64,000 bases of DNA from Planctomycetota bacterium (GTDB lineage: Bacteria > Planctomycetota > MHYJ01 > JACPRB01), in contig DATLZA010000156.1 of NCBI GenBank assembly GCA_035574235.1, positions 17,998 to 81,997 on the forward strand, in the 5' to 3' direction. The position numbers and the translations under genes were made by a program. Positions 25,625-62,419 of the stretch are shown here, one piece after another. A model generated the notes under the pieces. The model saw only the letters and a list, made by a program, of their open reading frames with translations, was not told the DNA's origin and ran no database searches. The first letter of the stretch is position 1; each line of letters starts with the position of its first letter.

Positions 25625-26554
25625 TTGACCGACGATCGCGAGCTCCGCCAGAAGATCGCCGCCGAGGCGCAGACCGGGTCGGCCTTGGATGCGGGCCCGG
25701 GCGTGCGGGCCTTTCAGTTTTTCCTCGTGCCTCTCCTGATCGTCGCGGTTTGCGTGGGGGTGGTGGCGGGGATGACCTACCTCGTGTCGAACCCGCGTCC
25801 GGCGGCGGAATGGCTCAAGGACATCCGGGACGGGGGACCCAACACGCGCCCGCATGCGGCCCTTCAGCTGGCGCAGGCGCTGAGGCGGATGAAGGAGCCG
25901 GATCCGTCGCTGACGCCCGGAATCATCGAGGTCTATCGTTCCAGTCGTCCGGACGAGACGGAGCTTCGGCGCTATCTGGTGAACTGTCTGGGGACGCTCC
26001 GGGATCCGAAGGCGTCCCCTTTCCTGTTGGAGCGGGTCCGGGAGGAGAAGGATCTCGAGCTGCGGGCGGCATGTCTGGACGCGCTCGGGGCGGTCAAGGA
26101 TCCCGAGACGCTGCCGGAACTCGTCAAATTGCTTGACGATCCGGACGGCGTCGTTAGAAAATACGCCGCCTTCAACGCGGGCGCCGTGGCGGAGCGCGCG
26201 CCGGATCGGTCCGGCGCCGTCGAAGCGCTGCGCCGGAAACTTTCGGACCCGCGGCCGGACGTGGGCTGGAACGCGGCGCTGGCGCTGGCTTACTTCCTGG
26301 AAGACGGCTCGGGGACGGACACCTTGAAGAAGATGCTCGACCGGGCGTATCTCCGGGAGACGATCGACCCGAAGGATCCGAACGCGGAGATTCTGGCGGC
26401 GCGGGTCCTGGTCGGAGCCTGCAACGCGGCCGCGCGCCTTCGGGACGCGAGCTTCCTGCCGCTTCTGCGCCGGCTGGCGGACGACCGCCGGGAGCCGGAT
26501 CCCGACGTGCGGTTTATCGCCCATCAGGCGATCCAAAAGATCGAATCGAGGTGA
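25625..26554 (+). CDS. membrane-anchored HEAT/PBS-lyase-like repeat protein
   Basis: TTG start per the track. One TM (FQFFLVPLLIVAVCVGVVAGM). Repeated units of the form LxxLxDPDxxVRxxAAxALG (LGTLRDPKA…, LGAVKDPET…, LLDDPDGVVRKYAA…, LSDPRPDVGWNAALAL). The gene ends 8 nt before the Rieske gene. Confidence 0.65.
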   Translation: MTDDRELRQKIAAEAQTGSALDAGPGVRAFQFFLVPLLIVAVCVGVVAGMTYLVSNPRPAAEWLKDIRDGGPNTRPHAALQLAQALRRMKEPDPSLTPGIIEVYRSSRPDETELRRYLVNCLGTLRDPKASPFLLERVREEKDLELRAACLDALGAVKDPETLPELVKLLDDPDGVVRKYAAFNAGAVAERAPDRSGAVEALRRKLSDPRPDVGWNAALALAYFLEDGSGTDTLKKMLDRAYLRETIDPKDPNAEILAARVLVGACNAAARLRDASFLPLLRRLADDRREPDPDVRFIAHQAIQKIESR

Positions 26555-26561
26555 GCGCGCG

Positions 26562-27173
26562 ATGGCCGAGGAACAGTTCACGGGCGATCAGGTGAAGGAT
26601 CTTCGCCGCAAGGTCCCGGAGCCCTACAGCCTCGTGGCGGACTATCCGCCCAAGATCACGCGGCGGAGTTTTTTCATGTCGTGGGCGGGGGCGGCCTGGA
26701 CCGCCTTCGGCGCCGCGTCGGGCGTGGGGACGCTGGCGATGCTGCGGTACATGATGCCGAACGTTCTTTTCGAGCCGCCGCAGGTCTTCAAGGCAGGCAA
26801 GCCCGAGGACTACGAGTGGGACAAGCCGGATGAGCGCTTCAAGCAGGACAAGAAGACCTGGATCGTGAAGCTCTCGAAGGACTATAACGGCCGCCAGAAG
26901 GTGCTCGTGGCGCTGGACACCACCTGCACCCACCTGGGCTGCACGCCGAACGTGCTTTTCAGCGAAAGCAAGATCAAGTGCCCCTGCCACGGCTCGGGCT
27001 TCCGGTTCACGGGCATCAATTTCGAAGGGCCGGCGCCGCGTCCCCTGGAGCGGTACGCCGTTTCGATCGATCCGATCGACGGACAGATCGTCGTGGACAA
27101 GAACCGGAAGTTCCAGCAGGAAAAGGGGCAGTGGGAGGACAAGGCTTCCTTCATCGATCTTTCCACGGCATAG
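26562..27173 (+). CDS. Rieske [2Fe-2S] iron-sulfur subunit of a cytochrome bc-type complex
   Basis: Tat-type signal [12 protein letters not shown]. Rieske boxes CTHLGC and CPCHGS. Confidence 0.9.
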
Positions 27174-27177
27174 CGGC

Positions 27178-27972
27178 ATGGCGAAGAAGGGCGACGTCGG
27201 GCGAATCTGGGATTACATCGTCAACACGCAGGTGTGGCGCTCCATCATGCGCCACGGCTACCCGGACACCCCCCGGAACCGTTCGCTGGCGATCATGTCG
27301 AACGTGTTCCTGCATCTGCACCCCATCCGGCTGCGCAAGAGCGGCCTGCGGGTGCGGTACACGTGGTGCATGGGAGGGCTGACCTTTTTCCTCTTCCTCG
27401 TCGAGACGATCACCGGGCTGCTCCTGATGTTCTACTACCGCCCCACGGCGGAATACGCCTACCACGACATCGTGTACCTGCGGGCGGACGTGGCGCTGGG
27501 GACGATGCGCGAGATTCACCGGTGGGGCGCGCACGCGATGGTGATCACGATCTGGCTGCACATGATGCGTGTGTTTCTCACCGGCGCCTACAAGCCGCCC
27601 CGGGAGTTCAACTGGGGCGTGGGGGTGGTGCTTCTGGTGATCACGCTGCTGCTTTCGTTCACCGGATACCTCCTCCCGTGGGACCAGCTGGCCATGTGGG
27701 CGATTACGGTGGGGACGAACATGGCGCGGGCGACCCCGCTTCTGGGCCATGAGGGTCCGGGCGCCGCGCTCATCAAGGTCGGCGACATCGGCGTGGTGCA
27801 CATGGCCAGCGACGTCCGGTTCGGCCTTCTGGCCGGACGGTTCGTGGGACCGCCGGCGATCCTGCGGTTCTACGTGCTGCACTGCGTGGGGTTCCCGCTG
27901 ATCGCGGCGTTCTTGATCGCGGTTCACTTCTGGCGGGTGCGCAAGGACGGCGGCATCTCGGGCCCGCTGTAG
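27178..27972 (+). CDS. cytochrome b, N-terminal half (b6-like, split cytochrome b)
   Basis: Four heme-ligand histidines in two H-x13-H pairs ([17 protein letters not shown]; [19 protein letters not shown]). 264 aa. Confidence 0.9.
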
Positions 27973-28011: not shown

Positions 28012-29142
28012 ATGCACGTGCTGGCGGCGGTGGCGGCGGGCGGCGGAGGAGGGGGATTCCTCCCCGAAGGGTTCAAGGACTGGCTCAACCACCTTTTCAA
28101 CCCCGTCGTCTATACCCTCCTGAGCATCGTGCTGTTCGTGCTCATGATGGTGGGCTATCGCGTCTGGACGCGCCCCAAGGTCGCCCTCGGGATCCTCATC
28201 GCCGTCGCCCTCTTCTTCGTGGTGGCCTTTCCGGACATGAACTTCCGGAAGATCGTCACGAAGCCCGACAACGTTCCCATCGTCGCGCTCATCTTCGTGC
28301 TGGGCTTCTTCACGTGGTGGGCGCTGCGCCAGGCCGCGATCAACGACGAGCGGATCGAAAAGGGCCTGCCGCCTCAGGAAGCCCTGGAATCCAACGACCG
28401 CGTCCTGAGCTGGCCCGACCTGGTCTACACGGAACTCATCTGCTCCGTGATCTTCACGGTCGTGCTCGTGCTGTGGGGCGTGTTCCTGGACGCCCCCCTC
28501 GAGGAGCCCGCCAACCCCGGAAAGACCCCGAACCCCTCGAAGGCGCCCTGGTACTTCCTGGGGCTTCAGGAAATGCTCGTCTACTTCGACCCCTGGATCG
28601 CGGGCGTGGTGCTGCCCACGATGATCATCACGGGGCTCATCATCATCCCCTACTGCGACCGGAATCCCAAGGGCGTGGGGTATTACACCCTCAAGGAACG
28701 CCCCTTCGCCGTCTGGACCTTCATGTTCGGCTTCCTCATCCTCTGGGTGTCCCTCATCATCATGGGCACGTTCCTGCGCGGGCCTAACTGGGAGTTTTTC
28801 GGTCCCTTCGAGGCGTGGGACGTCCACAAGGTGAGCCCGCTTTCGAACGTGAACCTGTCGGAGTATTTCTGGGTCAAGTGGCTCGGACAGCCTCTTCCCA
28901 ACAACATTTTCATGCGCGAGGCGCCGGGCTTCGTGCTGGTCCTGGGTTACCTGTTCGTTCTGCCGCCCGTTCTGGCCTTCACCGTGTTCCGGGGCCTTTA
29001 CCGGCAGATCGGATTCATCCGGTATAACCTCGTCATCCTCCACCTCCTCGTCATGGTGGGGATGGTCATCAAGATGGTTCTCCGCTGGACGGTGAACCTG
29101 AAATACGTCGTGTTCATCCCCGAGTGGTTCTTCAACATCTGA
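28012..29142 (+). CDS. cytochrome b C-terminal half (subunit IV-like) with extra transmembrane helices
   Basis: Qo-site region KAPWYFLGLQEML corresponds to the PEWY motif, here reading APWY. Multiple TM helices. Stop lies 1 nt before the next ORF. Confidence 0.8.
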   Translation: MHVLAAVAAGGGGGGFLPEGFKDWLNHLFNPVVYTLLSIVLFVLMMVGYRVWTRPKVALGILIAVALFFVVAFPDMNFRKIVTKPDNVPIVALIFVLGFFTWWALRQAAINDERIEKGLPPQEALESNDRVLSWPDLVYTELICSVIFTVVLVLWGVFLDAPLEEPANPGKTPNPSKAPWYFLGLQEMLVYFDPWIAGVVLPTMIITGLIIIPYCDRNPKGVGYYTLKERPFAVWTFMFGFLILWVSLIIMGTFLRGPNWEFFGPFEAWDVHKVSPLSNVNLSEYFWVKWLGQPLPNNIFMREAPGFVLVLGYLFVLPPVLAFTVFRGLYRQIGFIRYNLVILHLLVMVGMVIKMVLRWTVNLKYVVFIPEWFFNI

Positions 29143-29143
29143 T

Positions 29144-32100
29144 ATGGCCGACGCCGCCAAGCCCGACGCCCCCGTGAAGCACGAGCCCCCCAAGGAGCTC
29201 GAAGGGAAGGCCCAGGTCCAGAAGTTCATGGGCCGTCCCAAGAGAACTCCCGCGGACCAGGCGGAGTACTTCTACGACGTCAAGGTCACCCATATCGTCT
29301 TCTTCGCCGCTTCGCTCGGCCTGCTGGCGTCGTTCCTCCTCATGTTCCGCAAGGACCACGCCCGGCCCTGGAAGGAGTACCAGCGCCAGTTCGCCGAGAT
29401 GGATTTCGAGAAGCTCTGGTTCGAAATGAACGAGCTGCGCAAGGCGGAGGCGGCTCACGACCAGAAGAAGCGCGAGCTCGAACGCCAGATCGAGGCTTTC
29501 CTCAAGATCGTCCGCGGCCGCACGGTTCCGGTCACGCTTTTCGACCCTCAGGCCGCCGAGAAAGTCGCGCGGCTCAAGTCCGCGCCGACCGTCACGGTCC
29601 TCGTCGACGAGGAGAAAAAGAAGCTCCTTCTGGCCGAGCAGGAAAAGATCCGCGGGGAGCACTACGACAAGCAGCAGCTTTTCAACTTCGCCAAGGACGA
29701 GCTGGGGGCCGTCCGGTACCGCTTCGAGGAAGCGAGCCGCCATTACGAGGAGGCCCGGAAGTCCGGCGACGCCCGGCTTCCCGAGCACGAGCGCGCCTAT
29801 CTCGAGGCCAAGAAGGCCTGGGAGGCGGTGAACGCCAAGGTGGATCTCCGCAAACGCGAGTTCGACGAGGTGGACGCGCTGAAGACCTTCTACGAGGACT
29901 TCGTGACGGCCCTGGAGAGCCGCTCGGTGCCGGGACTCTGGGAGGGGCGCCCGTCCCTGGCGGAGCTGCAGAAAGAGATCGCCCTCATCACCCGCGACCT
30001 GGAAGACAAGCGCACGCGCTTCCAGAAGGAACGCCCCAGCTTCGCCAACCGGGTGCGCAACCTTCCCATGCTGGACTTCTTCGCCCCGCAGTACAAGGTC
30101 CAGCAGGTGATCCTCCCCGACCTCAAGGATCAGCTCAACTTCACGCGCGTCGACAAGGTGGACCGCTGCCATACCTGCCACGTGGGCATCGCCAATCCCG
30201 TCTACGAGGTGCGCATCCATCGTTCGGCGGAGAAGGAGGAGGACCGGTACGTTTTCAAGGATCCCTTCCTTCGGGAGTTCGTGGCCCACGCGCGGGGCCT
30301 CAGGGACGGCCGGCCCTTCGAGCCGAAGGACTGCAAGGTCTGCGACCCGGAAGGGCGCAAGAACGCGGAAATGGCCGCCCCGCTTACGCCCCACGGCTCC
30401 TGGGATTCGGACGACGCGATCCGGTTCACGAAAGCCTTCATGGCCCATCCGCGCCTGGACCTGTACGTGGCCGATTCCTCCCGCCACCCGATGCAGCGGT
30501 TCGGCTGCACGATCTGCCACGAGGGAGACGGACGGGACACGGACTTCACGCGCGTCGTTCACACGCCCGACGACCGCCAGGAAGCGGCCGCCTGGCGCCG
30601 CCGGCACGGCACTCCCTTCGGCGAGGAACGCTACAACTGGAACTACCGGGAGCTGTGGGATCTCCCGATGATCCCCTCGAAGTTCGTCCAGGCGTCGTGC
30701 CGGCGCTGCCACGTGGATGCCGTGGAGCTGGACGGGGCGGAGAAGTACGTGGCCGGCATGAAGCTCTTCGAGCGCGCCGGCTGCTACGGCTGCCACCGCA
30801 CGGACACCTACCAGGTTCTGGAAAAGGATCAGGCCAATCCTTCGCTGGATCCCAACCGCAAGGCGCGCCGTCCCGGGCCGCCGCTCACGCGGATCGACAC
30901 CAAGGTCACGCCGGAATGGGCCTGGAAGTGGCTCATGGGCCCCCGCGACTTCCGCCCCACCACCCGCATGCCGCATTTCTTCCTGCAGTCCAACGCGCGA
31001 AACTTCGTCACCGGGCTTGACGAGAAGGGGGAAGTCCGCAAGAAGCCCTACAAGCCCGAGGAGATCGACGGCACCCTCGCCTGGTCGATCCTGCGGTACA
31101 TCTGGAGCCTGTCGGAGACCCAAGAGGACGCCCCGCCTCCGGCTTCTCTCAAGGGCGATCCCAAACGCGGGGAGCTCATCGTCCGACAGGTGGGATGCAC
31201 CGCCTGCCACAAGGTCGAGGATACCCCCGAATCCGAATTCCGCGCCTGGACGGATCGGAGCCGGTACCTGGAGGAATTCGCTCCGGCGCTGGCGGGCGTG
31301 GGGAGCAAGATCAAGTCCAAAACCTGGCTGTACCACTGGGTGCGCAACCCCAAGAAGCACTTCCCGGATTCCGCGATGCCGAGCCTGCGCCTCACGGAAC
31401 AGGAAGCGCTGGACGTCGTGGAATACCTGATGACGCTCCGCAAGCCGGAATGGGAGCGCCGCCCCGGCCCGCCGCCGGTGCGGGAAGAGCTCGTCAATGA
31501 CCTCGTCTTCGAGCAGCTGCGCAAGGCGACCTCCGACGCCAACGCCCGCCGGTTGCTCCAGGGCGGGGATCCGGAGCTCAAGGACCTGGACGGCCGGGTG
31601 CGGTGGCTCGGGCGCAAGATGACGGCCAACTTCGGCTGCTACTCCTGCCACCGGCTGCCCCGCAAGGACGGAGAGCCGGACTGGCTCAACACCGAGGGCA
31701 TCGGCGTGGAGCTGACGGGAGCGCAACCGTTCGGTTCCAAGCATTACGACCGGCTGGACTTCGGCTTCACGATGGACGACGGGGTCAACCATCACGGCGT
31801 CACGTTCAAGCACGGAGTGACCGGTCAGGAGATCACCGCCCGCGTCCACGAAACCCGCCAGGACTGGCTGGAGTGGAAGCTGCGCAATCCCCGGATCTTC
31901 GACGGCGGCAAAATGGAGTCGAAGCCCTGGGACGAGCTTCTGCGGATGCCCCACTTCGGCCTGACCGACTATGAGATCGAGCTGCTTCAGACGTTCGTCC
32001 TGTCCTTCACGGACCATCGGGTCGCCGGGCTGGTGGCGTCGGCGGAGAAGCGGTTTTCCCCCGACGAGAAGGCGCTCAACCGCGGAGAGCGCCTTGTGCG

Positions 32101-33202
32101 GGACAACAACTGCCGGGCCTGCCACCGGATGTCCCTCGATCGCTTCGAGACGGAGTGGACGCGATTGGACCCGGCTCAGAAGAAGGTCGTGACCACCTGG
32201 GAGTGGGTCGAAGGGCGCAACCTCGGGCGCGCGGGGGCGGACAACGCCGAGGCGATCCTCCGGCGCTGGGGGCTGATCTCCGGCGACGTCAAAAAGGAGC
32301 AGCTCGCCCGGTACGAGGTTTACTCGATCGACTGGGCGTCCGATCATCGCACGCTCCGGATCCCGGGCGTCGTGGCCGGGGGCAACAAGTTCGTGGCCTT
32401 CGACGGGGACGATTGGTGGTACCTCGACACGGACGAAAAAGGCCAGCCCCTCAAGCGGCCGATTCGCCGGAGGATCCCCCAGGACGGAGGGGACATCCTG
32501 CCCAAGATCGCCGCCTTCAAGAAGAAGCTCGCCGACGAATCGGACGAGGACATCGGCGACATGAGCGACCCCGGGCAGCTCGAGGCGCGCTATCCTCCGA
32601 TGCTGCGGACCCAGGGCGTCAAGACCCAGGCCGACTGGCTCTACCGCTTCCTCAAGAATCCCTGGCCGATCCGGCCGAACATTTTCCCGGTGGCGCCGGG
32701 CGCCAGGACGATGCCGGATCTCAACATTCGGATGCCCACGTTCGGACTGTCCGACGAGGAGGCGGCGTCGCTTGTGCGGTGGTTCGCCGTCCGGGACCAT
32801 CTGCCGGGGGTGGATGTCTACCCCTACACGAATTTCCCGGAGCGGGACCCGGCCCTTCTGGCCGCCCGCCGGGAGATCCACGAGAAGGTTCTTCGCGGCG
32901 TGATTCTGGACCGCGAAAAGGGGTGCGCAAGCTGCCACTGGGTGGCCGGCCAGGCGCCGCCCGGCGACCCCTTCAAGCACGCGCCGGATCTGGCCCATGT
33001 GGAGGAACGGCTCCGCCCCCGGTGGCTCTACCCGTGGGTGGCCGTCCCGGCTTCGATCTATCCGCGCACGACGATGACGTCCTTCTGGTCGAACCCGCAG
33101 GATCCGAAACAGGCCGACGAGATCCGGGCGGCCGTGGAGGCGCTGTTGAACTTCCGGAAACTGACCTCCGCGAAGGGCGCGGAGACGCAGGAGAAGAAAT
33201 AA
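29144..33202 (+). CDS. membrane-anchored poly-cytochrome c (8 CxxCH; tandem class I cytochrome c domains) with long N-terminal coiled coil
   Basis: Eight heme motifs: CHTCH, CTICH, CRRCH, CYGCH, CTACH, CYSCH, CRACH, CASCH. At least four are followed by class-I Met-ligand signatures (TRMPHFFL, SAMPSLRLTEQEALDVVEYL, LRMPHFGLTDYEIELLQTF, IRMPTFGLSDEEAASLVRWF). N-terminal TM IVFFAASLGLLASFLLMF, then ~250 aa of heptad-like charged sequence. Confidence 0.85.
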   Translation: MADAAKPDAPVKHEPPKELEGKAQVQKFMGRPKRTPADQAEYFYDVKVTHIVFFAASLGLLASFLLMFRKDHARPWKEYQRQFAEMDFEKLWFEMNELRKAEAAHDQKKRELERQIEAFLKIVRGRTVPVTLFDPQAAEKVARLKSAPTVTVLVDEEKKKLLLAEQEKIRGEHYDKQQLFNFAKDELGAVRYRFEEASRHYEEARKSGDARLPEHERAYLEAKKAWEAVNAKVDLRKREFDEVDALKTFYEDFVTALESRSVPGLWEGRPSLAELQKEIALITRDLEDKRTRFQKERPSFANRVRNLPMLDFFAPQYKVQQVILPDLKDQLNFTRVDKVDRCHTCHVGIANPVYEVRIHRSAEKEEDRYVFKDPFLREFVAHARGLRDGRPFEPKDCKVCDPEGRKNAEMAAPLTPHGSWDSDDAIRFTKAFMAHPRLDLYVADSSRHPMQRFGCTICHEGDGRDTDFTRVVHTPDDRQEAAAWRRRHGTPFGEERYNWNYRELWDLPMIPSKFVQASCRRCHVDAVELDGAEKYVAGMKLFERAGCYGCHRTDTYQVLEKDQANPSLDPNRKARRPGPPLTRIDTKVTPEWAWKWLMGPRDFRPTTRMPHFFLQSNARNFVTGLDEKGEVRKKPYKPEEIDGTLAWSILRYIWSLSETQEDAPPPASLKGDPKRGELIVRQVGCTACHKVEDTPESEFRAWTDRSRYLEEFAPALAGVGSKIKSKTWLYHWVRNPKKHFPDSAMPSLRLTEQEALDVVEYLMTLRKPEWERRPGPPPVREELVNDLVFEQLRKATSDANARRLLQGGDPELKDLDGRVRWLGRKMTANFGCYSCHRLPRKDGEPDWLNTEGIGVELTGAQPFGSKHYDRLDFGFTMDDGVNHHGVTFKHGVTGQEITARVHETRQDWLEWKLRNPRIFDGGKMESKPWDELLRMPHFGLTDYEIELLQTFVLSFTDHRVAGLVASAEKRFSPDEKALNRGERLVRDNNCRACHRMSLDRFETEWTRLDPAQKKVVTTWEWVEGRNLGRAGADNAEAILRRWGLISGDVKKEQLARYEVYSIDWASDHRTLRIPGVVAGGNKFVAFDGDDWWYLDTDEKGQPLKRPIRRRIPQDGGDILPKIAAFKKKLADESDEDIGDMSDPGQLEARYPPMLRTQGVKTQADWLYRFLKNPWPIRPNIFPVAPGARTMPDLNIRMPTFGLSDEEAASLVRWFAVRDHLPGVDVYPYTNFPERDPALLAARREIHEKVLRGVILDREKGCASCHWVAGQAPPGDPFKHAPDLAHVEERLRPRWLYPWVAVPASIYPRTTMTSFWSNPQDPKQADEIRAAVEALLNFRKLTSAKGAETQEKK

Positions 33203-33226
33203 AAAGAGAATGGAGGTGACAGGGAC

Positions 33227-33964
33227 ATGCGTACGCTTGCGATGATGGCGGCCGTCGCGGTCGCGCTGGGCGCGTCCGGCGACCGGCGGGCGTCGGCCGG
33301 GACCGGCGGCACGACGGCCCAGGACGGCTTCGCGGTCACGGGCAACGTCAAGATCAAGGGCGACATCCCCAAGCGGAAGAAGATCCGCATGGACGCGGAT
33401 CCGAAGTGCGCCGCGCTCCACGCGGAGCCTCCGTTGACGGAGGAGGTCGTGGCCGACGCCCAGGGCAACGTCCAGTGGGCGTTCGTCTACGTGAAGAAGG
33501 GGCTCGAGGGCAAGAAGTTCGAAGCGCCCAAGACCCCGGTCGTGATCGACCAGAAAGGGTGCCAGTATCACCCGCACGTTCTGGGAATCATGGTCGGACA
33601 GGATCTTCTGATCCGCAACAGCGACGATCTGCTCCACAACATCCATGCGCTGCCCTTCAACAACCGAGAGTTCAACTTCGGGCAGCCGCAGAAGGGGATG
33701 GAGGAGAAGAAGCAGTTCACCACGCCCGAAATCATGGTCAAGGTGAAGTGCGACATTCATCCGTGGATGAGCGCCTGGGTCGGGGTTCTCGAGCACCCCT
33801 TCCACGCGGTTACGGGTCCCGACGGCAACTTCAAGATCGAAGGCCTGCCCGCCGGCAAGTACACGATCGAAGTCTGGCACGAGAAGTACAAGGCGGTTTC
33901 CCAGGAGGTCGAAGTCAAGGCCGCCACGACCGTCAACTTCGAGCTGACGGAGAAGAAGGAGTAA
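33227..33964 (+). CDS. secreted cupredoxin (amicyanin/plastocyanin-like type-1 Cu site) fused to a CarboxypepD_reg-like beta-sandwich
   Basis: Signal peptide MRTLAMMAAVAVALGASG. The segment VGQDLLIRNSDDLLHNIH…KVKCDIHPWMSAW matches amicyanin VGDTVTWINREAMPHNVH…YHCTPHPFMRGKV (Cu ligands H, C-x2-H-x2-M). C-terminal VTGPDGNFKIEGLPAGKYTIEVWHEKY resembles a carboxypeptidase-regulatory domain. Confidence 0.75.
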   Translation: MRTLAMMAAVAVALGASGDRRASAGTGGTTAQDGFAVTGNVKIKGDIPKRKKIRMDADPKCAALHAEPPLTEEVVADAQGNVQWAFVYVKKGLEGKKFEAPKTPVVIDQKGCQYHPHVLGIMVGQDLLIRNSDDLLHNIHALPFNNREFNFGQPQKGMEEKKQFTTPEIMVKVKCDIHPWMSAWVGVLEHPFHAVTGPDGNFKIEGLPAGKYTIEVWHEKYKAVSQEVEVKAATTVNFELTEKKE

Positions 33965-34030: not shown

Positions 34031-34166
34031 CTCTTGCGGCGCGGAAAATTGAAGCGGGACAGAATGTCCCAATCCGATCCCGATTCCGGCGCGCCGGTCG
34101 AAGTTCCGCCCGTCAGGCGTGGGCGGCATGCCGTTTGCTTGGGGTCACGGGAAACAGGAGGGCGCG

Positions 34167-34961
34167 ATGAAACGACTTGCGGCGACCCTGATGAGTGTTT
34201 TTGTTCTGGGGTGCGGCCGGTCCGAGACGCCCGGTGGATCGGGGGCCGCTTCCCCTTCGCCGGCCCCCGCTCCGGGCGCGGCCGAGTCCCGGCCGGCGCC
34301 GCCTTCGGGCGACGCCCCGAAGGGCACGGCGTCGATCCGGGGCGTCGTGCGCGTGACGGGCACGCCGGCACGCGGCAAGGCGCGGCCCAGCGACGACTGC
34401 GCGGCGCTTCACGCCGGGCCGATTCTCCTGGACGATATCGTCGCCGACGCGCAGGGTCGCCTGCAATGGGCGTTCGTCTACGTCCGGAAAGGTCTCGAGG
34501 GACGCCGTTATCCGCCGCCGGCCGCGCCGGTGGTCATCGATCAGCGCGGCTGCCGGTACGAACCTCACGTGGTCGGGCTCGTCGCCGGCCAGCGGCTGAA
34601 GGTCACCAACAGCGACGATCTCCTGCACAACGTGCACGGACTTCCGTTCGCCAACCGCGAATGGAACTGGGGTCAGCCGCGCAAGGGGACGGAAAACGAA
34701 ATCACGCTTCAGGTGCCGGAGGTCATGATCCGGATGAAATGCGACATCCATCCCTGGATGAGCGCGTGGATCGGCGTGCTGGAGCACCCCTTCTTCGCGG
34801 TCACGGGTCCCGACGGGAGCTTCGCGATCGAAGGGCTGCCCGACGGCCGGTACGTCCTGGAAGTCTGGCACGAGGCGTTCGAGCCGGTCCTGAGGGACGT
34901 GGAACTCAAGGGCGGAGAATCGCGGGTCGAGGAGTTCGTGCTGGAGAAAAGGAAGCAATAG
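34167..34961 (+). CDS. lipoprotein paralog of the cupredoxin-CarboxypepD_reg fusion
   Basis: RBS aggagg precedes the ATG. Lipobox-like MSVFVLGCG. The same ligand set is present: DLLHNVH…KCDIHPWMSAW. ~55% identity by eye to the 33227 product over the core. Confidence 0.75.
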   Translation: MKRLAATLMSVFVLGCGRSETPGGSGAASPSPAPAPGAAESRPAPPSGDAPKGTASIRGVVRVTGTPARGKARPSDDCAALHAGPILLDDIVADAQGRLQWAFVYVRKGLEGRRYPPPAAPVVIDQRGCRYEPHVVGLVAGQRLKVTNSDDLLHNVHGLPFANREWNWGQPRKGTENEITLQVPEVMIRMKCDIHPWMSAWIGVLEHPFFAVTGPDGSFAIEGLPDGRYVLEVWHEAFEPVLRDVELKGGESRVEEFVLEKRKQ

Positions 34962-34995: not shown

Positions 34996-36018
34996 ATGAA
35001 GGAAAAGGCGCTCTGGGCGCTCTTCGTCGTCCTGGCCGCCTGCGCGGTGGCGGCCGTTCTGGGGCTGTGGTTGCGCCGGGCGGCGCGCGACCGCGCGCCG
35101 GAGTTCGCGCTCGTGGACGCGCAAGGGCGGCCGGTGACGCGGCGCGACCTTCTCGGCGAAGTCTGGGTGGCGGACTTCGTCTTCACCCGCTGCCGGCTCA
35201 CCTGTCCCGCCATGACGTCCGCGATGGCGACGCTGGCCGAGCGCGTGCCGGGGGCTCGGTACGTGTCCTTCACCGTCGATCCGTCGCACGACACTCCCGA
35301 GCATCTGGCCCGGTGGACCGCGACGATGGGCGTGGCCCGCGAGGGATGGCTTTGGCTCTCGGGGGCGTCGGAGGAGGAGATGGGGCGGATCGCGCGGGGC
35401 TTTCTCCTTCCGACGGGACGGGCCCCGGAAACCGACTCCCGCATGGCGATCCTGCACAGCGAGAAGTTCGTCCTCGTGGACCGCTATGGGCGGATCCGCG
35501 GCTGGTACTCGGTGGTGGACGGGCTTTCGCTGCGGAGGGACGAGGCGGCGCTGGCGCGGCTGGAGCAGGATCTGCGGCGCCTGCTGGGGGAGCGCCGGCT
35601 GCCCGTCCAGAAGCTGCCGGCGGTGAACGCCGGATTCAACGCCGTCAGCACGCTTCTGCTCATATCCGGATTCGTCTTCATCCGGAAGAAGCGTGTCGGA
35701 GCGCACCGGGCCTGCATGGTGGGGGCATTGGCGGCTTCGGCGCTCTTTCTGGCCGGGTATCTGGCGGCGCACTACTATCTGGGTTCGACGCCGTATCCGC
35801 GACGGGATTGGACGCGGCCGCTGTATTTCGCCGTTCTGGCGAGTCACTCGGTTCTGGCGGCGTTCATTCTGCCCCTGGCCGGGATCACCCTCTACCGGGC
35901 GTTTCGGGGCGACTTCGAGCGTCACCGGGGGATCGCCCGCTGGACGCTTCCCTTGTGGTTGTACGTCTCGGTGACGGGGGTGGCGATCTACGGGATGCTC
36001 TACGGCGTCGGCGGATAG
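34996..36018 (+). CDS. SCO1/SenC copper chaperone (CxxxCP thioredoxin fold) fused to a DUF420-like polytopic membrane domain
   Basis: N-terminal TM, FVFTRCRLTCPAMTS (CxxxC) with a downstream His (DPSHDTPEH). C-terminal four TM helices with conserved His (LASHSVLAAF). TATAAT 9 nt upstream of the ATG (leaderless-type spacing). Confidence 0.8.
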   Translation: MKEKALWALFVVLAACAVAAVLGLWLRRAARDRAPEFALVDAQGRPVTRRDLLGEVWVADFVFTRCRLTCPAMTSAMATLAERVPGARYVSFTVDPSHDTPEHLARWTATMGVAREGWLWLSGASEEEMGRIARGFLLPTGRAPETDSRMAILHSEKFVLVDRYGRIRGWYSVVDGLSLRRDEAALARLEQDLRRLLGERRLPVQKLPAVNAGFNAVSTLLLISGFVFIRKKRVGAHRACMVGALAASALFLAGYLAAHYYLGSTPYPRRDWTRPLYFAVLASHSVLAAFILPLAGITLYRAFRGDFERHRGIARWTLPLWLYVSVTGVAIYGMLYGVGG

Positions 36019-39412: not shown

Positions 39413-40246
39413 TCACGGTCCGCCGAATCGGCGGCGGCACCAGGCGCGCGCGAGGACCAGGTTGAGCCCCATGAGCGCCAGGAATCCGCCCAGCCCGAGC
39501 GCCTTGCGGCGCGCAAACTCCGCCTTCCGCCGCTCCGCCCGGTCGAACGTCTCGCGGGCGGTCCGGGCGGCGGCCGGGATCTCCTCCTCCAGCTTCTTGA
39601 AGACGGAAAAGAGCCCCGCGTGCTGCCGGGAACGGAACTCCCCGCGCGCGCGCCGGGCGGCCTCGAGCGCCGCGCGCTCCGCCGCCCAGGAGATTCCCGG
39701 TTCCTCCTCCGCCAGGCAGGCTTCCAGCCGCGCCAGCTCCGGTTCGAAGGCGGCCATCTGCTCCCCGAATTTCGTCATGGCGGCGATCTGCCGCGAGGCC
39801 GGCCGATGACACTCGGCGCACCCTTGTTCCTTGCTCCTGAGGATTTCCTCCCGCCGCGCCGGGGCCGTCCGGTGCTCGGTGTGGCAGGCCAGGCAGCCCC
39901 GGACCTTTCCGCCTCCCTCCCAGTCGGCATAGTGCTGGCTGCGCTTGAATTCCTCGAGTTCCTGGATATGGCACGTCCCGCACAGGGCGGGCGAATCGCT
40001 GCGGGGGCGGCCGGCCTCGTCGAGCTCCTTAAGGACGCCGCGGCGGAAGCCCTGGACGTAGAGGTGCGGACGCGACTTTCGGGTGTCGATCTGGTCGGCG
40101 CCGTGGCACCCGACGCAGTCGGTTCCTTTGAGCGCGTGAACGGAATCCTTCCAGTGGTCGCGCTGCTCCTCGTGGCATTCCGCGCACCGGCGAGCGTCGG
40201 CCACCCTCTCCTGCGCCGCCAGGAACGCCAGCAGCGCCGCGATCAT
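39413..40246 (-). CDS. pentaheme c-type cytochrome with C-terminal membrane anchor
   Basis: Signal peptide MIAALLAFLAAQ. Five CxxCH motifs: CAECH, CVGCH, CGTCH, CLACH, CAECH. C-terminal TM LGLGGFLALMGLNLVLA. The ATG overlaps the cytochrome b stop (ATGA). The upstream 93 codons of the track ORF are rejected. Confidence 0.8.
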   Translation of the reverse strand: MIAALLAFLAAQERVADARRCAECHEEQRDHWKDSVHALKGTDCVGCHGADQIDTRKSRPHLYVQGFRRGVLKELDEAGRPRSDSPALCGTCHIQELEEFKRSQHYADWEGGGKVRGCLACHTEHRTAPARREEILRSKEQGCAECHRPASRQIAAMTKFGEQMAAFEPELARLEACLAEEEPGISWAAERAALEAARRARGEFRSRQHAGLFSVFKKLEEEIPAAARTARETFDRAERRKAEFARRKALGLGGFLALMGLNLVLARAWCRRRFGGP

Positions 40247-41379
40247 CGGCCGCCCTCCGCCGCGCGGTGCGGCACGCCCCGGATGTCGAACTCCCAGGGT
40301 CCGATCCGCCGCTCGGAAAGGAACCCGAGGATTCCGAGCGCGAGCGTCGCCGCCAGACCCGCCGCGGCGGCCGCCATCAGGAACCGCCGCCGCCCGGGCC
40401 GGCGCTCGGGATTGCGGTCGAGAAACGGCAGGAGAAAAAGAAGCGCCACCGCTCCGTTGACCACGAGAAGCCCCGCGAGCTTCGGGAAATACTTGAGCGC
40501 CTGGTAGACGGGCAGGAAATACCACTCGGGCTTGACTCCCCTGGGCGTGGACTGCGGGGTGGCCTTGGGCCCCAGCTCGAACGGGAAAAGCACCGCCAGC
40601 GTCACCACCAGGCTCAGGACCACGATGACCGTGGTCACCTCGCGGTAGAGATGCCGCGCGAAGGGAACGCCCTCCCGGGCCATGATCCCCTCATATCCCT
40701 CGCCGATCTCCTCCCTGACGCTGCGGCGCGTGCTGATGCCCAGGCGGCGCACCAGGTAGAGATGGCCCGCCACGAGCCCGACGAGAGCGGCCGGGAGGAG
40801 AAGCACGTGCACGATGAAGAAACGCGACAGGGTTGCGTCCGAAACCCGGGAGCCTCCGCGGATCATCTGTCCCAGGGTATCCCCCACGAGGGGCAGTCCC
40901 ATGAACGACTCCGTGGCCACCACGGTGCCCCAGTAGGAAACCTGGTCCATGGGCAGGAGGTACCCCGTGAACCCGAACGTGACCGTGACGAGAAGAAGCG
41001 CGCACCCGAAAAGCCACGTCAGCTCGCGCGGCTTCTTGTACGCCCCGTACCAGAAAACCCGCCCGAGGTGAAGGAGCACCACGAAGACCATCGTGTGGGC
41101 CCCCCAGGCGTGGAAGGAACGGATGAGCCAGCCGCCGGGAATCTCATGCGTGATCCGGCGCACGCTCTCGTACGCCCTGTCCATCGAGCTCGAGTAGTTG
41201 AGGGCCAGGAGGATGCCGCTTCCGACCTGCGTCATGAAGAGCACGAGCGCCGCCGTGCCCAGCGTGAAGGCGTAGCTCTCCGCGTGCGGCGGAACCGGCT
41301 TGTAGAGCTGCTCCCGGCCGAAGCGGGCGAACGACGAAAGCCCCAGCCGTTCCTCCAGCCACGTCCGCAGGCGACCCAT
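40243..41379 (-). CDS. cytochrome b (full-length, unsplit)
   Basis: Both H-x13-H pairs are present (AWGAHTMVFVVLLHLG; IVHVLLLPAALVGLVAGHLY). Canonical Qo motif PEWYFLP. Start at MGRLRTW (41379), 2 nt after the Rieske stop. Confidence 0.9.
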   Translation of the reverse strand: MGRLRTWLEERLGLSSFARFGREQLYKPVPPHAESYAFTLGTAALVLFMTQVGSGILLALNYSSSMDRAYESVRRITHEIPGGWLIRSFHAWGAHTMVFVVLLHLGRVFWYGAYKKPRELTWLFGCALLLVTVTFGFTGYLLPMDQVSYWGTVVATESFMGLPLVGDTLGQMIRGGSRVSDATLSRFFIVHVLLLPAALVGLVAGHLYLVRRLGISTRRSVREEIGEGYEGIMAREGVPFARHLYREVTTVIVVLSLVVTLAVLFPFELGPKATPQSTPRGVKPEWYFLPVYQALKYFPKLAGLLVVNGAVALLFLLPFLDRNPERRPGRRRFLMAAAAAGLAATLALGILGFLSERRIGPWEFDIRGVPHRAAEGGR

Positions 41380-41381
41380 GT

Positions 41382-41855
41382 TCAGAAGACCACGACCAGA
41401 CGACCCTTCTCCGAGCGCACCGGGAACGCCTGAAGCTCCCGCGCCGCCGGTGTCGTCGGTCCGGTCCCGTCCGGACGGAAGGTGGCGCTGTGGCAGGGGC
41501 ACCGGATCAGGCCGCTCTTCTCATCCCACTTCACCAGACACGCCAGGTGCGTGCAGGTGGCATTGACCGCGGTAAGTTTGCCTCCCGCGCGGATGATGAG
41601 CAGGGGGATCGCGCCTTTCTCGATCGCCTTGAAGCCGCCTTCGGGGATGTCGTCCGGCCCCACGTCGACGGGCCCCGAGAGGCGCGCTTCGGGGAGGGGA
41701 GCCAGATAGCGGGCCACCGGCACGGCGCTCAGGGCGCAGGTTGCGCACGCGGAGAGAGCGCACGCCGCGCCCAGGAAGTCCCGGCGGCTCGTTCCCGGCT
41801 GCTCGTCGCGTTCCACCGTCCGATCCTTAGTAGCCCCGCGCCGGACGCGCGTCAA
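41382..41855 (-). CDS. Rieske [2Fe-2S] protein
   Basis: Tat signal RRDFLGAACALSA. Rieske boxes CTHLAC and CPCHSA. 157 aa. Confidence 0.9.
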   Translation of the reverse strand: MTRVRRGATKDRTVERDEQPGTSRRDFLGAACALSACATCALSAVPVARYLAPLPEARLSGPVDVGPDDIPEGGFKAIEKGAIPLLIIRAGGKLTAVNATCTHLACLVKWDEKSGLIRCPCHSATFRPDGTGPTTPAARELQAFPVRSEKGRLVVVF

Positions 41856-60502: not shown

Positions 60503-62419
60503 ATGCCGATCCGGAAGGTCGAAACGGTCCGAAAGCGGGACGGCCGCATCGTCCCCTACGACGAACAGAAGATCGCCGAGGCGATCGTGCGCGCCGCCCG
60601 CGCCGCCGGACACGACAACGCCACCATCGGCCGCGACCTCGCCAGCGTCGTGACGATGTATTTGGAGCGCTATCGGGAGCGCGACGTTCCCACGAGCGAG
60701 GAAATCCAGCGTCTCGTCGAGAAGATCCTCTTCGATACGGGCCACGCCGCCGTCGCCCGGGCCTACATCGTCTACCGGGAGCGCAAGGGCCAGCCGGCCG
60801 GCGCGGCCGCGCCTCCCGCGGAGGACCTTTTCCCGACGAACCTCGTCCTCGTGGACGGCGCCACCCGGGCCGAAGTCGCTCCCTGGGGGCGCGAGCGCAT
60901 CATCGCCGCGCTCACCAAGGAAGCCGGCCTCGAGGAGGAGGCCGCTTCGGAGATCGCCGGATCCGTCGAGCAGAAAATCTTCCAGCTCGGCCAGCGGCGC
61001 GTCTCCACGACCCTCATCCGGGAGCTCGTCAACCACGAGCTCCTGGCCCGCGGGTACGGCTCGAAACTCCGCCGGCAGATCGTCGTGGGCCTTCCCAAGT
61101 ACGACCTCGGCCGCCTCATGGGCGACGAGGAAGCCCGCATCGATCCCGACGGGATGTGCCGCCTCATCGGCCAGACCACGCTCAAGCAGTACGCCCTCCA
61201 GGAGATCTTCACGCGCGACGTGGCCGACGCCCACCTCGAGGGGCGCCTGCACGTCCACGGCCTGGAGGAACCGCTCAAGCTTCACGCCCTGGAGCCTTCG
61301 GTCCTCGAGATCCGCCGCACGGGCGTCCGGGTGCGCGGCTCGGCGGCCCTTTCGGAGCCGGCCCGCGACGCGCGGACCCTGACCGTCCAGCTCGCCCGCG
61401 TGGCCGCCGACGCGCGCCGGTTCGTCAGCGGGCCGACCACGTTCCTCGGCCTGAGCGAAGCGTACGATCAGCTCCTGTGGGGGGCGGACGAGGACCGCGT
61501 GCGCCTGGAGGTCGAGCACGTGGCGGCGGCGCTCGAGGACGCGCCGTTCGTCGTGGAGCCCCGGCACCGCACGGCGGCGCCCCTGGCGCGGATGGGCCGG
61601 GCGGTCGTATGGACGGCCGGCGTGGGCGAGGAGCTGCGGGAGTTCTGCCGGCTGGCGGCGGACCGCGGCATGGTGTTCGCCTTCGCGCGGCCGCAGCCCG
61701 CCGGACCGGCCTCCGCCGCGCCGGGGGGCGCCCTGGAGGGCCGGGCCGTCGCCCAGGCGGTGACGCTCAACCTGCCGCAGGCCTTCTTCCGGAGCGAGGG
61801 CGGCGCCGATTTCTACACCGAGCTCGAGGCGGCCATCGAGCTGGCGGTCAAGGCGCACCTTCAGAAGCGCCAGCTGCTGCGCAAGTTCGCCGACCGCGCC
61901 ACGGGCGCCTTCGGCGCCGCCTTCGGGTGGCCGGCCGACGGCGGCGCCGCGCCGCCCTTCGACCGCTTCGAATACGCCGTGAGCCTGGCCGGACTCAACG
62001 AGGCGGTGAAGCTGCTTTCCGGCCAGGAAATCCTCGAGGGGGACGCCGCGGTGCGCCTGGCCCTGCGGCTGGTCTCGTACGTTTATTTCCGCCTCCGCGA
62101 GGAATCCGCCCGGCAGGGGATCCGGCTCGTGCTCGAGGACGTCCCGCCGGGGGAGGCGATCGACCGCTTCGTGCGGATCGACGCGCAGATGTATCCCCGG
62201 GCGCGCGGGCTCCTGGCCGACCGCGTCCGCTACACGCCGGGCTTCCGCGTCCGGGGGGCGCCGTCCTTCGAGACCCTCGCGGTCGAGGCGCGGTTCCACA
62301 CGCTCGTTCCCACCGCGCGCGCCACGGCGGAGCGCGCGCGCCTGTCGCCGGGGGATCTCTTCGCGATCCTGGAGCGGCTGTACGCCGAGACCCCCGCCGC
62401 CCGCGTGGCCGTCGAATGA
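60503..62419 (+). CDS. ATP-cone domain protein with large RNR-sized C-terminal body lacking catalytic cysteines
   Basis: RBS ggagaggaggg precedes the ATG. The N-terminal ATP-cone is VRKRDGRIVPYDEQKIAEAIVRAA. The remaining ~540 aa contain only 2 Cys and have no glycyl-radical (RVxGY) or CxxC signature. Confidence 0.7.
   Translation: MPIRKVETVRKRDGRIVPYDEQKIAEAIVRAARAAGHDNATIGRDLASVVTMYLERYRERDVPTSEEIQRLVEKILFDTGHAAVARAYIVYRERKGQPAGAAAPPAEDLFPTNLVLVDGATRAEVAPWGRERIIAALTKEAGLEEEAASEIAGSVEQKIFQLGQRRVSTTLIRELVNHELLARGYGSKLRRQIVVGLPKYDLGRLMGDEEARIDPDGMCRLIGQTTLKQYALQEIFTRDVADAHLEGRLHVHGLEEPLKLHALEPSVLEIRRTGVRVRGSAALSEPARDARTLTVQLARVAADARRFVSGPTTFLGLSEAYDQLLWGADEDRVRLEVEHVAAALEDAPFVVEPRHRTAAPLARMGRAVVWTAGVGEELREFCRLAADRGMVFAFARPQPAGPASAAPGGALEGRAVAQAVTLNLPQAFFRSEGGADFYTELEAAIELAVKAHLQKRQLLRKFADRATGAFGAAFGWPADGGAAPPFDRFEYAVSLAGLNEAVKLLSGQEILEGDAAVRLALRLVSYVYFRLREESARQGIRLVLEDVPPGEAIDRFVRIDAQMYPRARGLLADRVRYTPGFRVRGAPSFETLAVEARFHTLVPTARATAERARLSPGDLFAILERLYAETPAARVAVE

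Follow-up and report, generated by a model that had tools for sequence, protein, structure and literature searches.

The analysed window, a 64,000-nucleotide stretch of a planctomycete contig, contains a run of forward-strand genes in which the subunits of a Rieske/cytochrome b complex are followed by a large octahaem c-type cytochrome (29144–33202, 1352 aa, approximately 156 kDa as apoprotein, ATG start). The run opens with a gene for a HEAT-repeat (PBS-lyase-like) protein that has a hydrophobic segment near its N-terminus (25625–26554; Pfam HEAT_2 at 9.4e-23, and HEAT_PBS). It is followed by a Rieske [2Fe-2S] subunit (26562–27173; PF00355 at 2.1e-8, and the NCBIfam b6f/bc1 Rieske models), whose box II reads CPCHGSGF in the translation and is of the Ser/Phe type; by a four-helix cytochrome b6-type subunit (27178–27972; PF00033 at 4.4e-38, and NCBIfam cytochrome b6 at 1e-52) carrying the CxGG motif (TWCMGG) for haem cn; and by an enlarged subunit-IV-like protein of 376 aa (28012–29142; PF00032 at 1.2e-7), for which hydropathy indicated approximately eight hydrophobic helices. 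The Qo motif of this last protein is APWY (KAPWYFLG in the translation), by which the complex may be assigned to the clade of that motif described by Kao and Hunte in 2014, of which no member has been characterised (PMC4122944).

Directly downstream of the octahaem gene lies a gene for a secreted protein in which a cupredoxin-like (type-1 copper) domain is fused to a CarboxypepD_reg domain (33227–33964). Pfam detected the C-terminal domain alone, and the copper domain was recognised from PDB profile matches and its ligand motif. The matches were to the blue copper protein 5fc9_A (E 0.0072 with the single sequence and 4.8e-4 with the profile) and amicyanin (0.03); H137/H140, C175, H178, and M181 were invariant, and homologues carried the JGI label ‘plastocyanin’. 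The likeness to cupredoxins is modest (E 4.8e-4) and stems largely from the ligand motif. A paralogue with 53% identity follows (34119–34961), and then a haem-copper oxidase assembly factor that joins an SCO1/SenC copper chaperone to a membrane domain of the DUF420 (CtaM-like) kind (34996–36018; PF02630 at 2.5e-23 and PF04238 at 5.2e-41).

This arrangement recurred across phyla as a module in the order HEAT-repeat protein, Rieske subunit, cytochrome b6 (CxGG), 8-TM subunit IV (APWY), octahaem protein, and cupredoxin-like protein(s), often with SCO1/CtaM, CtaA/B, or COX1/2 genes after it. Among the related loci (L001–L024), the Rieske–b6–subunit IV–octahaem order was found in L001–L014, L016–L019, and L021–L024, which represent several phyla, and the HEAT-repeat gene was directly upstream of the Rieske gene in L001, L003–L005, L008, L009, L011, L016, L019, L021, L022, and L023. 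The gene after the octahaem gene was always homologous to 33227–33964, with C-x2-H-x2-M kept. The SCO1/DUF420 gene recurred in L001, L003, L004, L009, and L023/24, accompanied in the last by CtaA and CtaB, and COX2, COX1, and CtaA were located downstream of the cluster in L017.

The octahaem ORF is a real, intact gene. Its GC3 was uniform over the nine 150-codon blocks (0.87–0.91 in each), so that no signs of frameshifts were present within 29144–33202. An antisense ORF of 1582 aa (29132–33880), with a GC3 of just 0.66, was rejected as a high-GC shadow. The original prediction of a 1352-aa ORF with eight CxxCH motifs and one N-terminal transmembrane (TM) helix was confirmed from the translation and hydropathy, as was a start 1 nt past a cytochrome b stop: the upstream gene, which encodes the C-terminal, subunit-IV-like half of a split cytochrome b, ends with TGA at 29142, and the ATG follows from 29144. 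The N-terminal 300 aa do not belong to a separate gene, as homologues aligned from Met1 at 98–100% coverage. When the N-terminus alone served as the query of an exhaustive search, every match lay at the start of a large protein; among the 66 matches of at least 900 aa, 62 contained exactly eight CxxCH motifs.

These motifs lie at aa 342, 455, 519, 547, 685, 832, 990, and 1261; no variant haem-binding motifs were found in the translation, and one further Cys pair, CKVC, occurs at 397/400. Exactly eight CxxCH motifs were present in all of the 110+ full-length homologues, although their lengths span 950–1853 aa. All eight motifs, together with His435, His448, His473, Met609, Met745, Met935, Met1197, and Met1311, were invariant in 69 of 69 sequences. 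Because three His and five Met residues are invariant across this set, they indicate candidate bis-His ligation for haems 1–3 and His/Met ligation for haems 4–8. With a candidate sixth ligand for every haem, all eight would be six-coordinate, which suggests an electron wire and not an enzyme. The CxxCH-to-Met distances for haems 4–8 were 62, 60, 103, 207, and 50 aa, and the earlier description of Met signatures roughly 90–110 aa after each motif was true for one domain only among the four to which it referred (62, 60, 103, and 207). The four Met-Pro signatures that it quoted are present (M609, M745, M935, and M1197), but a fifth ligand had been missed, namely the invariant M1311 of haem 8, 50 aa from its motif in TTMTSF. 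Met-Pro signatures of this kind are the usual C-terminal signature of class-I c domains, not a special repeat.

As c-type haem attachment implies the periplasmic side, the best explanation of the topology is that everything past aa 70 is periplasmic and that the single N-terminal TM helix serves as the anchor. The cytoplasmic N-terminal tail (aa 1–47, 29144–29284) showed 67% identity in the close clade and was missing from distant homologues. The TM anchor (aa 48–70, 29285–29353) was recognised by hydropathy as a hydrophobic helix at 48–68 and modelled by AF2 as a helix at 47–72. It is followed by a helical arm (aa 71–300, 29354–30043) and a conserved pre-haem segment (aa 301–341, 30044–30166), whose beta hairpin at 322–340 packs on the haem domain (strands E3–12 and E15–21 in the AF2 haem-domain model, pLDDT 85–90).

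The first three haems belong to a trihaem module (aa 342–530, 30167–30733) with CxxCH motifs at 342, 455, and 519 and the invariant distal residues His435, His448, and His473; the CKVC pair sits in a clade-specific insert of this module. In motif closeness and conserved distal His residues, haems 1–3 would fit compact bis-His modules (c7/c3/NrfB-like). Pfam Cytochrome_C7 scored 34.0 bits (cut-off 24.8) over aa 516–557, which covers the third and fourth CxxCH motifs. Bis-His haems are usually low-potential, and electrons entering at the trihaem module would have to move uphill from a high-potential Rieske cluster, a consideration that counts against the overall reading favoured below.

The remaining five haems are carried by class-I domains, hereafter D4–D8. 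D4 (30734–31108; CxxCH 547, Met609) has a FixO-like Pfam match at aa 574–618, and D5 (31121–31468; CxxCH 685, Met745) was above the Pfam Cytochrom_C threshold (PF00034, 78.9 vs 21.3 bits, aa 675–765), with a SoxX-like NCBIfam match. D6 (31586–32038; CxxCH 832, Met935) is preceded by a helical linker (aa 776–814), and D8 (32846–33178; CxxCH 1261, Met1311) gave PDB profile matches to the cytochrome c domain 2l4d and to CcoO. The long CxxCH-to-Met distance in D7 (32045–32827; CxxCH 990, Met1197) arises because a beta-rich insertion of approximately 120 aa (aa 995–1115; strands at 676–792 in the numbering of the AF2 haem-domain model) interrupts the domain; identity within this insertion was 39% among close homologues, and gaps made up 34% of it among distant ones. 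All five domains have the class-I characteristics (PF00034/PF13442), with CxxCH, its His the predicted proximal ligand, near the start of an alpha-helical domain (approximately 80–120 aa in this class), an invariant candidate distal Met C-terminal to it, and mutual homology. In hhalign, seven of the ten pairs reached probabilities of 86–99% (D5–D8 99.1, D4–D5 98.7, D5–D7 96.4, D5–D6 96.0, D4–D8 95.2, D6–D7 93.7, and D4–D6 85.9), while the D4–D7 pair was weak (25.9). Profile–profile comparison thus bore out the proposed internal duplication. The description of the protein as built from repeated class-I domains stands for D4–D8 but fails for the first three haems. Likewise, the claim that it does not show compact multihaem packing was half right, because haems 1–3 share a module in which three distal His residues are invariant and the third and fourth CxxCH motifs are only 28 aa apart.

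The arm consists of helices at 76–123, 166–207, 212–259, and 272–296 and a small beta sub-domain at 127–163. Its residues (aa 71–300) are 41% charged, and AF2 modelled it as long helices with pLDDT >90 across aa 110–290. A hydrophobic pattern at heptad a/d positions exceeded that of shuffles in three of the four helices (p 0.007–0.03; p 0.31 for helix 76–123). A putative coiled coil of approximately 250 aa could form a rigid stalk that keeps the whole haem array at a distance from the membrane, perhaps so as to meet partners on the far side of the wide planctomycete periplasm, but several features make this unlikely. In bc1 and b6f, the mobile Rieske head is established to serve only a haem near the membrane surface, and in a Rieske/cytochrome b complex it must contact the first c haem there. 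Conservation is lowest and indels are most frequent in the helical region (41% identity vs 56–65% in most haem domains). The segments bordering it are nearly invariant, both beside the TM helix (the P-side juxtamembrane motif M67, D71, R74, W76, K77, and Q80) and beside haem 1 (P308, D311, F333, D340, and R341), which suggests that both ends of the region lie on a conserved core. The same region also occurs in the short-form homologues of Marinimicrobia and ‘Deltaproteobacteria’ MAGs. A model has been published for just one analogous subunit, the octahaem Kustd1485 in the Kustd1480–1485 complex of Kuenenia stuttgartiensis; in this AlphaFold3 model, long alpha-helices wrap around part of the complex, and the haems form groups of two and three, with two of them near the membrane (PMC12954380). 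For the long helical part we regard a structural arm as likelier than a stalk, and the best explanation is a clade-variable arm of approximately 230 aa that would pack against or around the complex.

No solved structure homologous to the whole protein was found in PDB sequence and fold searches, and neither sequence nor fold comparison linked it to cytochrome c1 (PF02167) or cytochrome f (PF01333). Pfam, NCBIfam, PDB sequence, and fold searches gave no match to HAO, ONR, or octahaem nitrite or tetrathionate reductases, and Pfam and NCBIfam gave none to the NrfA and MauG families. These results bear on the idea that the octahaem protein works independently in the periplasm, as a membrane-anchored redox protein or a multihaem enzyme, and that its gene does no more than share a transcript with the bc genes. 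Two homologues, in L015 and L020, are indeed located apart from any Rieske or cytochrome b gene, and the octahaem protein evolves much faster than b6 (approximately 56% vs 92–94% identity at the same loci). However, synteny with the genes for the Rieske protein, b6, and subunit IV persisted in 19 of the 21 distinct related loci (Planctomycetota, Marinimicrobia, Brocadiia, and a ‘Deltaproteobacteria’ MAG), and the complex would otherwise be left without a c-type cytochrome gene to receive the Rieske electrons. Together with the absence of an evident catalytic site, each haem having a conserved candidate sixth ligand, and of a match to the enzyme families named above, this makes an independent redox protein or enzyme very improbable. 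The synteny and the 1-nt junction instead support the original proposal that the protein is a subunit of the Rieske/cytochrome b complex, which we consider likely from this genomic evidence.

We therefore favour, with a probability of approximately 0.72, the reading in which the octahaem protein serves as the c-type cytochrome subunit of an APWY-clade Rieske/cytochrome b quinol oxidoreductase of the b6 type and acts as a pure wire delivering electrons to a cupredoxin and an aa3-type oxidase; in function it would correspond to cytochrome c1, cytochrome f, or QcrC. Menaquinol would be oxidised at the Qo site, and the Rieske cluster would hand one electron to a membrane-proximal haem, from which it would travel from haem to haem until it reached the blue-copper (cupredoxin-like) protein whose gene lies directly downstream. 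The aa3-type haem-copper oxidase would be reached from this protein, or directly. The five His/Met class-I domains would have arisen via internal duplication, behind the compact bis-His N-terminal trihaem module. The potential of a Ser/Phe Rieske cluster suits His/Met haems and a downstream cupredoxin. Rieske proteins of this type are associated with values of +200 to +335 mV (PMC3509893, PMC12954380).

The same components might run in reverse, with the octahaem protein gathering electrons from high-potential periplasmic donors (the cupredoxin or others) and the complex feeding the menaquinone pool at the cost of proton-motive force. Kao and Hunte suggested reverse operation as possible for complexes with the APWY motif (PMC4122944), and a many-haem antenna could take several donors; however, no periplasmic substrate oxidase is encoded in the window or the related loci. 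The genes that do recur (SCO1/DUF420, CtaA/B, and COX1/2) are for an oxidase and its biogenesis and fit forward flow to O2, so we regard reversal as improbable.

Among known systems, the Kuenenia complex shares, by description, an eight-haem c subunit replacing cytochrome f/c1, a b6-type split cytochrome b with subunit IV, a TM anchor, long N-terminal helices, and the Ser/Phe Rieske type. Its operon additionally encodes an NAD(P) oxidoreductase subunit, and the complex has been proposed to generate NAD(P)H (PMC12954380), whereas no gene for such a subunit was present in the window or L001–L024; a Brocadiia-class MAG has its family member in an ordinary module without the oxidoreductase. Cytochrome b6f with plastocyanin is similar in its four-helix b6 subunit, in which CxGG serves haem cn, its separate subunit IV, Rieske protein, anchored c-type cytochrome, and cupredoxin acceptor (here proposed). 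It differs in that subunit IV has three helices rather than approximately eight and a PEWY rather than an APWY motif, and that the cupredoxin is here fused to a CarboxypepD_reg domain; cytochrome f is monohaem and beta-rich with a C-terminal anchor, unlike the N-terminally anchored eight-haem protein, which lacks PF01333 similarity. The dihaem QcrC of actinobacterial bcc-aa3 supercomplexes, and cytochrome c1/CcoO-type class-I domains, are also related systems; where these have two domains, the present protein has five of class I together with a trihaem bis-His module, and it adds an N-terminal helical region of approximately 230 aa. Alternative Complex III, with the pentahaem ActA and monohaem ActE, likewise has an anchored multihaem wire that passes quinol electrons to an aa3 oxidase (here proposed), and a weak sequence match was observed (6btm_A, E 0.005), but it lacks a Rieske or cytochrome b core and its haem-domain architecture is unrelated past single c domains. 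Overall, the locus likely represents an uncharacterised type of respiratory quinol-oxidising complex with an eight-haem subunit, whose genes occur in several bacterial phyla.

The octahaem cytochrome gene (29144..33202, + strand) was a single ORF of 1352 codons with an ATG start, as originally predicted. All eight expected CxxCH motifs were located (aa 342, 455, 519, 547, 685, 832, 990, and 1261), no variant haem motif was found in a motif scan of the 1352-aa protein, and hydropathy gave one hydrophobic helix (aa 48–68), in agreement with the single N-terminal TM helix proposed. The 1-nt gap after the cytochrome b stop was also present, with the upstream TGA ending at 29142 and the octahaem ATG at 29144; the preceding gene encodes the C-terminal, subunit-IV-like half of a split cytochrome b (PF00032). 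A frameshift and a separate gene for the N-terminal 300 aa, both raised by the original prediction as possible flaws, were ruled out by the uniform GC3 (0.87–0.91 in each 150-codon block), the absence of stops, the full-length homologues, and the confinement of the N-terminal domain to octahaem proteins. An antisense ORF (29132-33880, 1582 aa) was rejected because its composition was that of a shadow frame in high-GC DNA.

Haem ligands were assigned from a conservation alignment of 69 sequences reaching down to approximately 27% identity. The invariant columns included all eight CxxCH motifs, H435, H448, and H473 within the region of haems 1–3, and M609, M745, M935, M1197, and M1311, one after each of CxxCH 4–8; every full-length relative contained exactly eight CxxCH. 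The simplest reading of these columns would be three bis-His haems and then five with His/Met ligation, each of the eight being six-coordinate, which argues for electron transfer only and not catalysis; this ligand inventory was the ground for rejecting a catalytic octahaem enzyme. The four Met-Pro signatures quoted earlier, similar to the C-terminal signature usual in class-I c domains, were all present, but at 62, 60, 103, and 207 aa from their CxxCH rather than the proposed 90–110 aa, and the list had missed the Met of the eighth haem (M1311). Separately, an extra Cys-x2-Cys pair without His (CKVC, aa 397–400, window 30332-30343) lies in an insert that separates haems 1 and 2. Of 23 close relatives, 18 keep this pair, which distant ones lack; it could be a disulfide or metal site.

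The proposed duplication of class-I domains stood for haems 4–8 but not for haems 1–3. In profile–profile comparisons, domains 4–8 were mutually homologous (86–99% probability for 7 of the 10 pairs), whereas the match between the trihaem module and the class-I domains was limited to CxxCH itself. Pfam gave a strong Cytochrom_C match at aa 675–765 and a FixO-like match at 574–618, while a Cytochrome_C7 match spanned CxxCH 3 and 4. An AF2 model of aa 320–1352, built with the family alignment, had a mean pLDDT of 90.0 and a pTM of 0.90; it placed a beta hairpin before haem 1 (aa 322–340), predicted helical c domains, and contained a helical linker at aa 776–814. The 207-aa spacing in domain 7 is explained by a beta-rich insertion of ~120 aa between its CxxCH and Met (aa 995–1115, window 32126-32488). 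Conservation of this insertion is low, with 39% identity among close relatives and 34% gaps in distant ones.

The N-terminal helical region belongs to the octahaem family only, since aa 1–341, used as the query of an exhaustive phmmer search against 1.84 billion representatives, matched 326 clusters, always at the N-terminus of the target, and 62 of the 66 matches of at least 900 aa had exactly eight CxxCH. A heptad test was significant for three of its helices and not for the first. This region had been proposed to be a stalk projecting the haems away from the membrane. It was the least conserved part of the protein (41% identity in close relatives versus 56–65% for most haem domains) and carried indels in distant relatives (aa 121–160 and 201–280); it is flanked by two stretches that are nearly invariant family-wide: a P-side (periplasmic-side) juxtamembrane motif (M67, D71, R74, W76, K77, and Q80) and a pre-haem segment (P308, D311, F333, D340, and R341). 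From this pattern, we infer that both ends of the region rest on conserved core surfaces. In bc1 and b6f complexes, moreover, the Rieske head can reduce only a haem close to the membrane surface. Given the flank conservation and this limit on Rieske reach, a stalk is unlikely. On the other side of the membrane, the cytoplasmic tail (aa 1–47, window 29144-29284) was better kept than the periplasmic helical region, with 67% identity and invariant G30, K33, P36, A40, and Y44 among close relatives. Distant homologues lack the tail, which suggests a cytoplasmic contact specific to the clade.

All genes of the module are on the + strand. Directly upstream of the Rieske gene (26562-27173), whose product has a box of the Ser/Phe type, lies the gene for a PBS-lyase-like HEAT-repeat protein (25625-26554) that carries a hydrophobic segment at its N-terminus. 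Next come the genes for a four-helix cyt b6, whose CxGG motif for haem cn reads TWCMGG (27178-27972), and for the subunit-IV-like protein (28012-29142). The latter is 376 aa long, carries the Qo motif APWY, and has ~8 hydrophobic helices, compared with 3 in the ~160 aa of an ordinary subunit IV. Downstream of the octahaem gene are two secreted paralogues whose only Pfam label is CarboxypepD_reg (33227-33964 and 34119-34961), an SCO1/SenC copper chaperone fused to a DUF420 (CtaM-like) membrane domain (34996-36018), and then GroES and GroEL.

A search of 5.8 billion proteins returned >120 octahaem relatives of 950 to 1853 aa, which databases already list under ‘c-type cytochrome’ or ‘multiheme c-type cytochrome’ and which, where a source was named, come from Planctomycetota or Pirellulales. 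One was 92% identical, and many were 54–63% identical at 98–100% coverage. Separately, a family member is encoded in an Acidobacteriota MAG. PDB sequence searches with the protein and the family profile gave weak single-domain matches only; neither a sequence match nor a specific fold match to the c1 and f families was obtained, and the octahaem protein is therefore placed outside both. Related loci were retrieved by a profile search of genome contigs seeded with a narrow family alignment, as a single-protein query gave no match and the wide alignment was too diverse as a seed.

The co-occurrence with split cytochrome b suggested as a check was observed across phyla. The order HEAT–Rieske–b6–subunit IV–octahaem was kept in 14 close Planctomycetota loci wherever the flank sufficed, in distant Planctomycetota and Pirellulales loci (L016–L019), and in ‘Deltaproteobacteria’ (L021), Marinimicrobia (L022), and Brocadiia (L023/24) MAGs, the HEAT gene lying upstream of the Rieske gene in all these groups. 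Only two loci, L015 and L020, had the octahaem gene away from any Rieske/cyt b gene; their proteins have 1583 aa (L015 7968-12719) and 1152 aa (L020 8001-11459), with eight CxxCH each. L015 is from a groundwater Planctomycetota MAG with 39.5% GC, where the octahaem gene has genes for ThiF and peptide deformylase as its neighbours. Identity in the same loci was 92–94% for cyt b6 and approximately 56% for the octahaem protein, indicating far faster evolution of the peripheral subunit than of the core. PBS-type lyases join tetrapyrroles to Cys through a thioether bond. The factor attaching haem cn outside phototrophs is not known (PMC5600118), and the HEAT protein is, by analogy, a speculative candidate for this role in non-photosynthetic bacteria, or for an assembly factor.

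The paralogues after the octahaem gene both contain an N-terminal cupredoxin-like domain (LLHNIH ... CDIHPWM). A homologue of 33227-33964 directly follows the octahaem gene in L016–L019, L022, and L023 (BLASTP E 1e-15 to 1e-64), and tblastn found one after the gene in close relatives wherever the downstream flank was present. C-x2-H-x2-M was always kept in the former (CDIHPWM in the window, which we take to resemble the amicyanin ligand loop), and H137/H140, C175, H178, and M181 were invariant in a 27-sequence alignment. The best PDB match was the type-1 blue copper protein 5fc9_A (E 0.0072 with the single sequence and 4.8e-4 with the profile), followed by copper nitrite reductase and amicyanin (~0.03), and many homologues are named ‘plastocyanin’ by JGI. 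With moderate confidence, both paralogues are regarded as cupredoxin-domain proteins and likely electron acceptors of the octahaem protein, probably acting as blue-copper electron carriers. By gene content, several loci tie the module to A-type haem-copper oxidases: the SCO1/DUF420 fusion is near it in the window, L001, L003, L004, L009, and L023/24, where CtaA and CtaB follow, and in L017 a dihaem cytochrome c, COX2, COX1, and CtaA come directly after the cluster. The Rieske potentials on record suit His/Met haems and a downstream cupredoxin. The Ser/Phe type has been correlated with about +200–230 mV (PMC3509893), and Kustd1480, the Rieske protein of a Kuenenia stuttgartiensis complex, was measured at +335 mV (PMC12954380).

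Set beside the observed parts list, ligand inventory, domain homology, and module conservation, the complex membership, entry haem, direction of flow, and acceptor are those we infer. Menaquinol would be oxidized at the Qo site (APWY), and electrons would pass through the Rieske cluster to a membrane-proximal haem of the octahaem protein, along its chain of haems to the cupredoxin, and from there to an aa3-type oxidase, while the low-potential branch would run through haems b and cn. Were electrons to enter at the bis-His trihaem module, the step from the Rieske cluster could be uphill. Direction and partners are open questions for APWY-clade complexes (PMC4122944), and the chief functional alternative is the reverse operation that Kao and Hunte suggested for them; since no periplasmic donor enzyme was found in the module and oxidase genes recur, this direction was given low weight and is quite improbable here. 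The broader reading, to which we assign a probability of roughly one in four, is that the six genes (HEAT, Rieske, b6 with haem cn, 8-TM APWY subunit IV, octahaem, and cupredoxin-CarboxypepD_reg) form a distinct respiratory complex III common to several phyla, in which the octahaem protein would be a built-in long-range wire or electron store that links the Q cycle with a dedicated blue-copper carrier. The protein may also dock an aa3 oxidase as an obligate supercomplex, with its arm of N-terminal helices serving to clamp the Rieske protein or to reach across to the partner.

The window contains a second Rieske/cyt b cluster on the opposite strand (39413-41855, −). It comprises genes for a Rieske protein (41382-41855), an unsplit cytochrome b of 419 aa (40243-41502), and a small multihaem cytochrome resembling c3/c7, which lies within 39413-40525, where the ORF as listed overlaps that of cyt b. 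Two different complexes, ~6 kb apart, are thus encoded by this organism. The window also contains the gene for NrdD, an anaerobic ribonucleotide reductase that has an ATP-cone (60503-62419, +); its presence alongside the oxidase-assembly genes hints that the organism may live as a facultative anaerobe.

As a kind, multihaem c subunits were already known from non-canonical Rieske/cyt b complexes. A literature search for a planctomycete octahaem bc subunit returned only the Kuenenia modelling paper, and the closest described case, Kustd1485, has the same haem count, a b6-type operon, and long helices, a likeness judged from its description; unlike the locus here, its operon also encodes an NAD(P) oxidoreductase. 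Functional likenesses are found in b6f with plastocyanin and in the dihaem QcrC wire of actinobacterial bcc-aa3 supercomplexes. As far as we know, and as far as the searched literature shows, three features have not been described before: the 3+5 haem architecture, a helical arm specific to the family, and a module with HEAT and cupredoxin proteins that spans phyla.

APWY-clade complexes have never been studied biochemically (PMC4122944), and the locus provides a complete parts list for one, conserved across phyla. It sets the haem inventory of the giant c subunit, read as three bis-His plus five His/Met, points to a specific cupredoxin partner and aa3-oxidase assembly genes, and offers a non-anammox reference for reading the unusual Kuenenia complexes. 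Current understanding is not overturned; rather, the octahaem locus offers a testable model of an uncharacterised complex III class that would link menaquinol oxidation to oxygen reduction in Planctomycetota, Marinimicrobia, and related uncultured groups.
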